Below are positions 28,101-31,100 of a DNA stretch of 46,609 bases, piece by piece (the first letter of the stretch is position 1; each line of letters starts with the position of its first letter). The stretch is from Myxococcales bacterium. Lineage in GTDB: Bacteria > Myxococcota > Myxococcia > Myxococcales > Anaeromyxobacteraceae. Position numbers: made by a program. Where the stretch lies: contig JBBQEB010000009.1 in NCBI GenBank assembly GCA_038320275.1, positions 1-46,609 on the forward strand, given 5' to 3'.

Positions 28101-31100
28101 CGCGCGCCTGGGGCGCGCTGGAGCTCGCCGAGGGTGGACGGGCCCGGGCTTCCGGGGGTGAGGGTAGAGAAGCGGCCCCGCGCGCGCCGCCCCACCCCGC
28201 CGACCGGGCCGTGCTGAGGGAAGCGGCGCGCCTCGCGCTCTCGGCCGGCCGCGGCGACGCCGCCCGGGCACACCTCTGGTCGCTCGCGCGCTCGGACCCG
28301 CGCGACGAGGCCAGCGCACGCCTGCTCCTCTCCGCGCTCGCCGGCCGCCACGCGGAGCTGGGCGAGCTCCTGCTCCTCCTCGCCCGCGCCGCGCCGGGGA
28401 GGGAGCGCGCCGGACGCTTCCAGGAGGCCGCGCGCGCGCTGGCTTCGGCGGGTGATGCCGCCGGCGCGCGGCGCGCGGCCCGCGAAGCGTTCGAGGCCTG
28501 GCCGGCGGATGACACCGCCTTCGCCGCCGCACTGCGGGACGCGGGGGCCGATGTGGACCGGCTCGACGCGGTGCTCGCGGCGCGCGCAGCCGCTGTCCCC
28601 GCCGAGGGGGCGGCTTGCCATCACTCCCGGGCCGGCACCCTGCTCGCCGCCGGCCGATCGGATGCTGCGCTGGAGGCGTACCAGGCCTGCCTCGACCTCG
28701 ACCCGGAGGATGCCGCCGCCCTCGCGCACCTCGCGGACGCGCAGGCCGGGCGCGCCGGTGATGCCGCTGCGGCGGCGCTGGACACCCGCCTGGTGAACCT
28801 CTCGGAGCGACAGCCCGGTCGCGTGGCGCCCGCGGTGGAGGCGGCCGCCCGCTACCGCCTCGGCCTCGAGGCGGCTCGCTCGGGAAAGGGTGAAGGGGCT
28901 GTCCGCCAGCTCGCGCGCGCCCTCGCGCTCGCGCCCGATGGCGAGCGCGCGGGGGAGGCGCGGACCGCGCTGGAGGCGGCCAGGGCAAGGTCGAGGGGGA
29001 TCGCGGCCGAGCGCCCGTCGGCGACCCCGACCTCGACCTCGAACGCGACCTCGACCTCGAACGCGACCTCGACCGCGACCGCAACCCCGACCGCGACCCC
29101 GACCGCGACCTCGACCGCGACCTCGACCGCAACCCCGACCCCGACCCCGACCCCGACCGCGACCCCGACCGCGACCCCGACCCCGACCGCGACCCCGACC
29201 CCGACCCCGACCTCGACCTCGACCCCGACCTCGACCCCGACCTCGACCTCGACCCCGACCCCGACCTCGACTCCGACCCGACTCCGGGCGCGCTCCTCAC
29301 CGCCTCCACCTCCCGGCCTCGACGAAGCTGTAGTACCCGCCGGTCGCCACGATGACGTGGTCCCTCGCCAGCACGCCCACCAGCTCCGCGGCCGCGCGCA
29401 GGCGCTCCGTGAGGTCCATATCCTCAGGGCTCGGCGATGGGTCGCCGGACGGATGGTTGTGCGCGAACACCACCCCGTGAGCGCCCTCGCGCACGGCCGG
29501 CCGGAGCGCGTCGCGCGGCGAGACGGGGCACTGGCTCAACGACCCTTCCGCAACCTGCACCGCCTTCAAGAGTCGTCCCCGGACGTCCAGCAGCACGACG
29601 TGGAAGCCCTCGCGCTCCGCGTGCGCCGCATGCCGGAGCAGCTCCTGGACGCGCCCGGGGTCGAGGCAGCGCTCGCCGCGGCGGGGCGGCGACCACGCGC
29701 CCCTTCGCCCCAGTTCGAACGCTGCCGCGAGCGCGGCGCCGCGCGCGAGGCCGATGCCCGGCGAGCCCGCGAGCGCCTCCGGCGACGACCAGGCCAGCTC
29801 CACCATGCCGCGCTCCTCTACCAGCCGGAGCGCGGCTGCGCGCGCGGAGAGACGAGCGCTTCCGGTGCCGAGGACGAGCGCTACCAGGTCTGCGTCCGAC
29901 AGCGAGCGTGCGCCAGCGGCGAGCAGCCGCTCGCGAGGCATGTCCGGCCGGATTTCGGGATCGTGCATGCCATGCCGCGGAGCAACGCACGTGCCGCTCG
30001 GCCCGGACGCCCACCTTGCGGGCGAGCACGTCCGAGGTCCATCCCACGCGGCCGCCGGTCCGCGCGGCGGCCCCCGATGGAACGTAACCGGCGGTCGGGT
30101 GTATCGTTTCGAGCGATCCCGTGCCCTCCGCCAGCCCAACCGGTGCTCCGTCCGATCCCGTCCGGCTTCTCCGGGCGCTGCGGATGGTGCACGCGTGCAA
30201 CGCGCTCCTGGTTCACGCGGAGGACGAGGGGCAGCTCCTCGAGGGCCTGTGCCAGGTCCTGGTCGGCGACGGCGCGTACGCCTTCGCCTGGATCGGCTTC
30301 GCGAGCGACGACGCCGCGCGCTCGGTAGTTCCAGGCGCCTCCGCTGGGCGCGGCGACGGTTACCTGGAAGCCCTCGCCGCCACCTGGTCGGAGGGGCCTC
30401 GGGGGAGAGGCCCGGTCGGCACCTGCATCCGGACCAATGCCCCCTGCGTGTTCCGCGACCTCGCCGACCCTCGCTTCACACCGTGGGCTCCGGAGGCTGC
30501 GCGCCGCGGCTTCCGCGCGGTCGGCTGCTTCCCGCTGCTGGACGAGCGGGAGGCGTTCGGCCTGCTCGCGGTCTACGCCTCCGAGCCGGTCGTCTTCGAC
30601 GAGGCCGAGCACAAGCTCCTGCAGGAGCTGGCGGACGGGCTGGCCTTCGGGCTGCGCGCCCGCCGCGCCGACGCCATGCGCAGTGAGCTCGAGGAGTCCC
30701 TGGCGCACCAGCTCGAGGAGCTGCACCGGCGCGAGGACGACTACCGCACCATCATCCAGACCTCCATCGACGGCTTCGCCATGGCGGACGCCACCGGTTG
30801 TGTCGTCGATGTGAACGATGCCTTCTGCTCCATGCTGGGCTCCTCCCGCGAGGAGCTCGTCGGCAAGGCGCTGGCCGACATCACCGCCGCGCCCGGCGTC
30901 ACCCGCCTGCGGGAGGCCGTGCGCGCGGGAAATACCCACGTCCGCATCCGCCACCTGCGGCGCGACGGGCGCGAGGTCGATCTGGAGGTGAGCGCCAGCT
31001 TCCTCGACGCGCAGGGGGCACGCGTGGCCGCCTTCGTTCGGGACGTGACGGACGAGGTCCGCGCGGAGGAGGCGCTCCGCGAAGCCCAGGCGCGGCTCTA

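Follow-up and report, generated by a model that had tools for sequence, protein, structure and literature searches.

The window, the whole 46,609-nt stretch of DNA analysed here, carries three tandem arrays built on the word CGACC, all on the forward strand. The first is a (CGACCN)43 run at 29022..29279 (+), detected by TRF with a period of 6, 43 copies and a score of 313, which confirms the array reported at these positions in the first-pass annotation; it is solo, with no adjoining cassette of the kind described below, and lies between a TPR gene and a converging radC gene, its 3′ end 18 nt short of the radC stop. The TPR-containing ORF (25664..30328, +; ORF list, Pfam TPR, coding score per 300 nt) has a positive coding score up to approximately 28960 and a negative one beyond; past that point its frame reads (Thr-Ser/Pro/Ala)n across the array and then runs antisense through radC, stop-free to 30328. 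The array sits where the TPR gene should stop. The radC-like JAB gene, a neighbour only, has ORF limits of 29297..30139 on the minus strand (ORF list, Pfam) and its real start is probably near 29970. The second array, frame-shifting and made of 6- and 7-nt units with 31 CGACC words (4772..4994, +; TRF, word scan), is located downstream of the ftsZ stop and ahead of a converging gene; a hairpin rich in G+C (4722..4763, +; −30.6 kcal/mol, z −2.7) lies between it and that stop. The third (3..90, +; TRF, word scan) is cut by the contig end at the contig start and lies upstream of a D-Ala-D-Ala ligase gene. When an empty site was sought for the array between the TPR gene and radC, radC had other neighbours in all eight relatives with a match, and the TPR gene gave one weak paralogue and one orthologue that is broken off where its contig ends.

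The same repeat is dispersed over the whole genome (G000; 4.1 Mb in 343 contigs, 71.7% G+C, 91% complete). A strict scan gave 82 arrays (5.9 kb, 56 of them with at least 7 units), including the one previously located at C70:10948-11145, which merge into 66 loci; a looser scan gave 96 clusters (8.4 kb), 20 of them within 150 nt of a contig end. The earlier totals of 95 arrays and 7.3 kb were thus about right. Five control words produced 0 to 45 clusters each in the looser scan and, at five or more words, 0 to 3 clusters versus 81 for CGACC. Five exact units matched 213 times, against approximately 2e-6 expected from word frequency, and the next non-homopolymer word among 1024 reached at most 12 matches. 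The sixth position of the unit is C in 355 cases, T in 324, G in 244 and only rarely A (55). Tandem runs of a single 5-9 nt word at many loci, in numbers well beyond those expected by chance, are the pattern of a dispersed long-unit simple sequence repeat (SSR), as is the enrichment outside coding DNA, which here depends on crude gene calls. None of 18 hits of a REP-like motif in this genome lay near an array.

Genes were called with a dicodon model that we trained (3638 genes, 88% of the DNA), which is crude and missed the TPR gene of the window. With these calls, 17 of the 66 loci lie inside genes and 49 outside, 15 of the latter at contig ends; a few of the 49, the array of the window included, are in genes that the caller missed. 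The division into 60 genic and 31 intergenic arrays given previously was not reproduced, the balance here being the opposite one; the repeat is stop-free in all six frames, which lets ORFs run through it and inflates genic counts. The non-genic arrays favour neither strand (18:18 after stops, 15:13 before starts), and for many arrays the nearest start or stop is no more than 200 nt away. Sixteen of the 17 genic loci read Thr-X, in proteins that include DnaX, RecG, HrpB, CheA, SucB and an AddA/UvrD-type helicase (names by NCBIfam), in agreement with the proposal that genic arrays are tolerated in this frame, the one that selection leaves; the remaining locus is a chance match to a conserved coding 29-mer, unchanged in 8 of 10 array-less genomes. 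There are also two possible gene tails in other frames (C86, Ser-Arg; C51, Asp-His). The proteins named in the first-pass annotation were recovered as regards DnaX, RecG, HrpB, CheA and the AddA/UvrD-type helicase, but no DnaE array was seen among the 66 loci.

The places occupied inside genes were compared among relatives. The HrpB loop, analysed in 31 genomes (5 of them unreadable at this spot), is short in most array-less genomes; in array genomes it is frequently longer and array-like through independent Thr/Ser/Ala runs, with palindrome-like inserts in several; the exceptions are the array genomes G063 and G094, which have no insert, and the array-less genomes G008 and G009, which have Thr/Ser-rich inserts. 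In G094, an array stands in place of the Pro/Ala-rich linker of a gene that we take to be PolA-like; the linker was replaced, not lengthened, and the array-less genome G096 has a decayed array-like linker at the same spot. The HrpB loop and the PolA linker also accept other short inserts. Judging from these comparisons, the genic arrays at the HrpB and PolA-like spots appear to occupy places that were already variable. Since both places vary in array-less relatives too, the re-sizing of linkers of core replication proteins, previously put forward as a property of the repeat, is a side effect.

The repeat is distributed patchily. At least 20 five-unit matches were found in 17 of 60 relatives, some of which exceed 1000 matches; among the 17 are 6 of the 10 genomes of the same genus, members of four further genera in the family, and 3 of the 4 genomes sampled from a second family. 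As the repeat extends over five genera and into that second family, the view of a clade-limited repeat absent from sister species does not hold. In the family sample, 25 of 66 genomes have a match, with a range of 0 to 1271 inside one genus, and one genome with 1271 five-unit matches is assembled in one contig. Mapping the array label on an HrpB tree of 31 genomes takes 6 changes, of which supported branches force at least 3. Relic (decayed) arrays in array-less genomes are rare, being clearly above the reversed control in G093 only. The repeat is rare outside the two families in a phylum sample of 251 genomes. A ten-unit scan of all species genomes gave at least 125 stretches, 80 of them with flanks; among the flanked stretches listed, 50 of 80 have, by our labelling, Myxococcota-type titles (including the cultured Anaeromyxobacter terrae and A. 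soli), records which may overlap our G genome set and were not counted as independent. Among these listed Myxococcota-titled records, 47 of 50 long arrays have no PF05635 gene in flanks of up to 1.5 kb per side. Among the listed stretches from other taxa, 17 of 30 are pure CGACCA runs, which we take to be Asp-His tracts.

Two genes, X and Y, accompany the arrays in relatives. They represent two of the several PF05635 subfamilies found there, with Pfam PF05635 scores of 53.6 (X) and 39.3 bits (Y) against a cut-off of 33.8, and TIGR02436 scores of 40.6 and 38.1 against a cut-off of 24. Together they form a cassette of approximately 1.3 kb: an array, a hairpin, gene X, then the facing gene Y, its hairpin and another array. 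Among the 42 loci drawn, all two-gene loci show X and Y tail to tail (convergent), and those with both flanks in view and an array called have CGACC arrays on both sides in the same direction, that is, as direct repeats. The hairpins (approximately −22 to −41 kcal/mol; z −4.1 and −5.4) cover the ribosome site and the ATG of X and of Y. In a Polyangiaceae record (L306), X and Y are likewise accompanied by these arrays, oriented in the same way.

The cassette is mobile and multi-copy. The closed genome G033 has four full copies and one broken copy, 92-96% identical and with unrelated flanks, and the array lengths differ among the four full copies (17 to 89 words). In G094, a cassette with both its arrays lies between two converging stop codons, at a site where 5 of 5 sister genomes have a short array-less gap; no target-site duplication was visible at this empty site, where the flank identity (84-93%) is too low to judge. 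An empty site in relatives and dispersed near-identical copies are shared with insertion sequences and MITEs; terminal inverted repeats and a transposase are not, the ends being direct arrays and X and Y matching four-helix families only. The four cassette loci searched gave no Rfam match, and the cassettes lie between protein-coding genes, not within a 23S rRNA gene. An RVT_1 domain was not found in G033 and G025, and in G000 and G094 it was found on other contigs; the cassette, at its size, has no room for a reverse transcriptase, so the diversity-generating retroelement (DGR) arrangement of a reverse transcriptase beside an Avd-like gene is absent.

The structural model of X (pLDDT 96) has four helices, and its best structural matches are 2rld (Z 15.3, rmsd 1.4, 97 aligned residues) and 2gsc (Z 14.3, rmsd 1.7, 95 aligned residues). 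At 99 residues, the cassette protein is a bundle of helices that has no catalytic motif. Xcc0516 is reportedly a five-bundle assembly. X and Y appear to be under purifying selection, since for each gene all 28 pairs compared gave a pN lower than pS (pN about half of pS, uncorrected).

The co-occurrence of X and Y with the arrays was analysed in 80 genomes, 76 of the family and 4 of the second family, with kin among them not independent, so that Fisher p values overstate the association; the profiles of X and Y were built from the first sample, with 39 of the 80 genomes held out. Genomes with at least 10 five-unit matches were considered array genomes (31 of 80) and those with at most 2 array-less (49 of 80). 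X or Y was present in 23 of the 31 array genomes and in none of the 49 array-less ones, a co-occurrence that is partly trivial, as the cassette brings its own arrays, and to which genomes with 13-29 matches add little. The held-out genomes gave 9 of 13 with arrays versus 0 of 26 without. The eight array genomes lacking both genes include G069 (305 matches), G062 (one contig, 10 matches) and G064 (100% complete, 80 contigs). Array genomes with X/Y and those lacking them do not differ significantly in the number of matches (medians 185 vs 50.5, p 0.13).

Other candidates did not follow the arrays. The PF05635 family as a whole tracks them loosely (11 of 13 vs 12 of 26 held-out genomes), and only the X and Y subfamilies do so closely. 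An HNH endonuclease was present in 12 of 14 array genomes versus 18 of 22 array-less genomes of the family, and 29 of its 30 best-hit loci have no array, which argues against a role as driver; a second HNH family (approximately 17 pieces) touches an array at 2 of the 16 loci shown. The HNH gene is multi-copy and a possible array carrier: HNH genes are flanked by arrays at C35 and C79, direct arrays enclose HNH genes in both G000 and G033, and 2 of the 3 solo arrays examined in G094 lay in HNH genes. HNH genes that lie between arrays or carry them fit the idea of arrays as general landing sites.

Different PF05635 subfamilies sit beside different words. A third subfamily sits behind runs of CGACTC, GGAACC, TGACCG or TCGGAN, which explains several array-less genomes with PF05635 genes. 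At least 10 matches to (CGACTC)n were found in 3 of 47 genomes, all with the third subfamily, and the runs extend to contigs for which no such gene is listed; G000, G025, G033 and G035 gave no match to this run. Beyond the two families, Y-like genes are present in 8 genomes with 0-1 five-unit matches, 4 of them with another repeat word beside the gene and 4 with none, including G049 (E 1e-41).

The genome of the window retains a trace of the cassette. At C180:6448-6654 there is a 5′-truncated Y (26.4 bits, below the Pfam cut-off), 14 nt from an array remnant and followed at the contig end by the start of an ORF that presumably encodes a transposase (33 residues, no NCBIfam match). Gene X was not found by profile search of this 91% complete genome, and no cassette debris other than C180 was seen at the solo arrays among the loci listed. 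In the sequencing run X1, which comes possibly from the source sample and possibly from another organism, one contig bridges the Y truncation without differences; pieces of Y occur at approximately twice the depth of this contig, and one 38-letter loose end reads as the end of a facing X gene. An intact X/Y pair therefore seems to exist in that sample, in the G000 organism or in another.

In REP/RAYT systems and solo LTRs, a gene is flanked by its own repeat, many copies of which are gene-less, and direct ends can delete the interior. The cassette resembles both, with genes flanked by their own repeat and many gene-less copies elsewhere; it has no HUH transposase or integrase, its partner being a 99-residue bundle. 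The cyanobacterial STRR sequences belong to the dispersed long-unit SSRs. As a repeat, CGACCN is ordinary in kind, but it is tied to an undescribed two-gene cassette by strong one-way co-occurrence. Known cases are GGGAATC in Xanthomonas and GGGGA(C/T)T in Nostoc (PMC4692102), and TAACTGA in Beggiatoaceae, Cyanobacteria and Bacteroidetes (PMC4679880); as in those, a short word occurs in tandem at many sites, mostly intergenic and in a minority genic, patchily among relatives and without a known mechanism of spread. The CGACCN unit differs in having 6 nt, one free position and no stop in any frame, so that it can enter genes, and in its tie to a named gene cassette, the available text of both papers naming no four-helix-bundle gene for those repeats (PMC4692102, PMC4679880).

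The intervening sequence of the 23S rRNA of Coxiella burnetii carries an S23p ORF of the same PF05635 family, apparently not made in vivo (PMC4990558). Both are small selfish inserts, the S23p protein not made and the starts of X and Y hidden in hairpins; the cassette is not in rRNA, has two facing genes and many copies between protein genes, and is bounded by direct tandem arrays in place of one RNase III stem (PMC4990558). X also falls in the four-helix fold class of Avd of DGRs (Z 11.4-11.5, rmsd 2.1-2.2 over 94-95 residues, values that unrelated bundles attain as well), but the cassette has no reverse transcriptase and shows no template/variable repeat pair (PMC10053308). The Rickettsia palindromic elements likewise enter coding sequence in frame as short repeats, at tolerant spots of housekeeping proteins, the same spot being hit in several lineages; they are palindromes of 100-150 bp and not tandem hexamers, and the PolA linker was replaced here, not added to (PMC3767692). 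In our literature search, whose coverage took in few subscription papers, nothing turned up that describes this repeat or connects PF05635 with tandem repeats.

We interpret the (CGACCN)n runs as the direct terminal arrays and scattered solo debris of the selfish X/Y cassette, whose proteins would sustain the arrays, a reading to which we give an even chance of being right. X and Y, as non-catalytic putative nucleic-acid-binding rings, would hold the repeat word, while polymerase and recombination enzymes of the host would extend the arrays and copy array-bounded segments into new intergenic gaps. Deletion between two direct arrays would leave solo arrays. Once abundant, the arrays might convert look-alike ACC-NCG codon tracts in flexible linkers, selection then retaining the Thr-X frame only, and where the cassette is lost the arrays would decay. 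Under this reading, G000 either represents a late stage after cassette loss or has intact cassettes that are missing from the assembly. More tentatively, and at somewhat less than even chance, PF05635 proteins may be putative sequence-specific drivers of non-catalytic selfish elements, each subfamily recognising its own 6-7 nt word and having it amplified and scattered by host enzymes; the facing pair described here would spread (CGACCN)n, a word which, being stop-free, would rewrite the linkers of essential proteins.

The main rival reverses the order of events: the arrays would come first, through another host factor or a replication quirk that comes and goes, and X/Y would be a passenger that recognises arrays and inserts into them as harmless sites, splitting one into direct halves. 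This possibility is a serious one, although we consider it unlikely. It accounts for the asymmetry by which the cassette never occurs without arrays and arrays occur without it in eight genomes, and for the direct orientation of the flanking arrays. The HNH genes bracketed by direct arrays in G000 and G033 and the solo state of 47 of the 50 listed long Myxococcota-titled arrays, within flanks of up to 1.5 kb per side, also speak for it. It does not predict the G094 site, where all five sisters have a gap without any array, it demands a second factor with an identical patchy distribution, and it leaves aside that different PF05635 subfamilies pair with different words which are themselves dispersed. 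A regulatory network, in which X and Y attach to the repeat, either on DNA or in transcripts, and modulate the genes nearby, the host keeping both, would agree with the many arrays close to starts or stops, with the purifying selection on both genes and with the translational control proposed for TAACTGA repeats (PMC4679880); the absence of a strand preference, the existence of close sisters without the whole system and the multi-copy and partly broken cassettes make it improbable.

In the first-pass annotation the repeat was a DNA-level satellite that seeds and expands by itself; the DNA-level nature was borne out, the arrays being mostly non-genic and strand-blind, whereas self-sufficiency was not, as their presence tracks one two-gene cassette and is patchy over the family. 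Seeding by polymerase slippage would fit the higher-order local repeats within arrays, which show slippage, the fact that CGACC is a common word at 72% G+C, and the eight array genomes without X/Y; slippage would not, however, single out one of 1024 words (213 matches vs at most 12), nor produce 0 versus more than 1000 matches inside one genus, nor account for the absence of X/Y from all 49 array-less genomes, and this origin is strongly disfavoured. Selection at the protein level for Thr/Pro-rich linkers in preferred codons draws on ACC, TCG, CCG and GCG being the commonest codons for their residues and on the pure (CGACCA)n runs that make up 17 of the 30 listed long matches in other taxa. 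For the repeat family taken together it is refuted by the non-genic majority, 49 of 66 loci falling outside the called genes although these cover 88% of the DNA; the orthologous linkers of array-less genomes, which do without arrays, also speak against it. Single short tracts may still be of this kind. An assembly artefact of a short-read bin, to which the 20 of 96 clusters at contig ends might point, has a negligible probability: contigs break at repeats, which explains the arrays at their ends, the one-contig genome has its 1271 matches, and the units are heterogeneous, not collapsed.

For decades, dispersed 6-7 nt repeats have been recorded in bacteria with no cause assigned to them, and the large PF05635 family has no assigned function. 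In the families studied here, the word and the gene pair go together with hardly an exception in one direction (23 of 23 genomes with the genes, 0 of 49 without arrays), near-sister genomes stand on both sides and cultured species carry the arrays, which makes the cause testable. The system would also offer a route by which a selfish repeat may alter the length and composition of linkers in replication and repair proteins. If true, the reading of PF05635 proteins as drivers would account for an orphan protein family and, at the same time, for how the dispersed long-unit SSRs of bacteria arise.

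The TPR gene of the window (25664-30328) runs without a stop past the (CGACCN)n array, and its frame continues antisense across radC. Close to the end of this array lies a 5-nt unit, suggesting a slip or an assembly error. The loop of HrpB that takes arrays also takes other DNA: among the HrpB loci L137-L166, in-frame, REP-like palindromic inserts were found in six comparison genomes (G001, G002, G003, G005, G033, G035) and were acquired independently in several genomes, resembling the Rickettsia palindromic elements. An array on the opposite strand was present at the 3' end of a gene, probably ybeY, in two species (C86:9035-9160 in the genome under study, G000; L005:5041-5087 in G004), apparently at the same site.

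Tail-to-tail pairs were also made by other PF05635 subfamilies (L079 in G081; L080 in G080; L246 and L254 in G102; L245 and L253 in G278). A CCCGCN-type word adjoins the pairs of G102; in G278, with its 12 matches, hairpins hide the start and no array was visible. Two reverse transcriptase matches in G000 (C196:433-1122 and C272:2904-3293) do not adjoin the cassette remnant. (CGACCN)n arrays with mixed N were also present in records titled actinomycete, Chloroflexia, Limisphaerales, Planctomycetaceae, Saccharibacteria and Spirochaetota (L269, L290, L313, L273, L334, L297); no PF05635 gene was found in the array-flanking DNA of these records.

In G000, at C55:7148-10917, an HNH gene is flanked by genes presumably encoding a cytosine methyltransferase and a restriction enzyme, as named from sequence. 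One multi-copy HNH family of G000 (C43:3226-5076 and about 16 further pieces; L009) shares an upstream motif and the 3' end among its copies, many of which lie at contig ends. Genomes of the Anaeromyxobacteraceae contain as many as about 50 matches to another multi-copy HNH family; in array-bearing genomes, its gene is often flanked by direct arrays, or carries an array within its linker (C35:15590-16783, C79:1-648 and C35:12232-12589 in G000, L007 and L008; L001 and L002 in G033; L197 and L215 in G094). This multi-copy HNH gene family may carry the arrays around.
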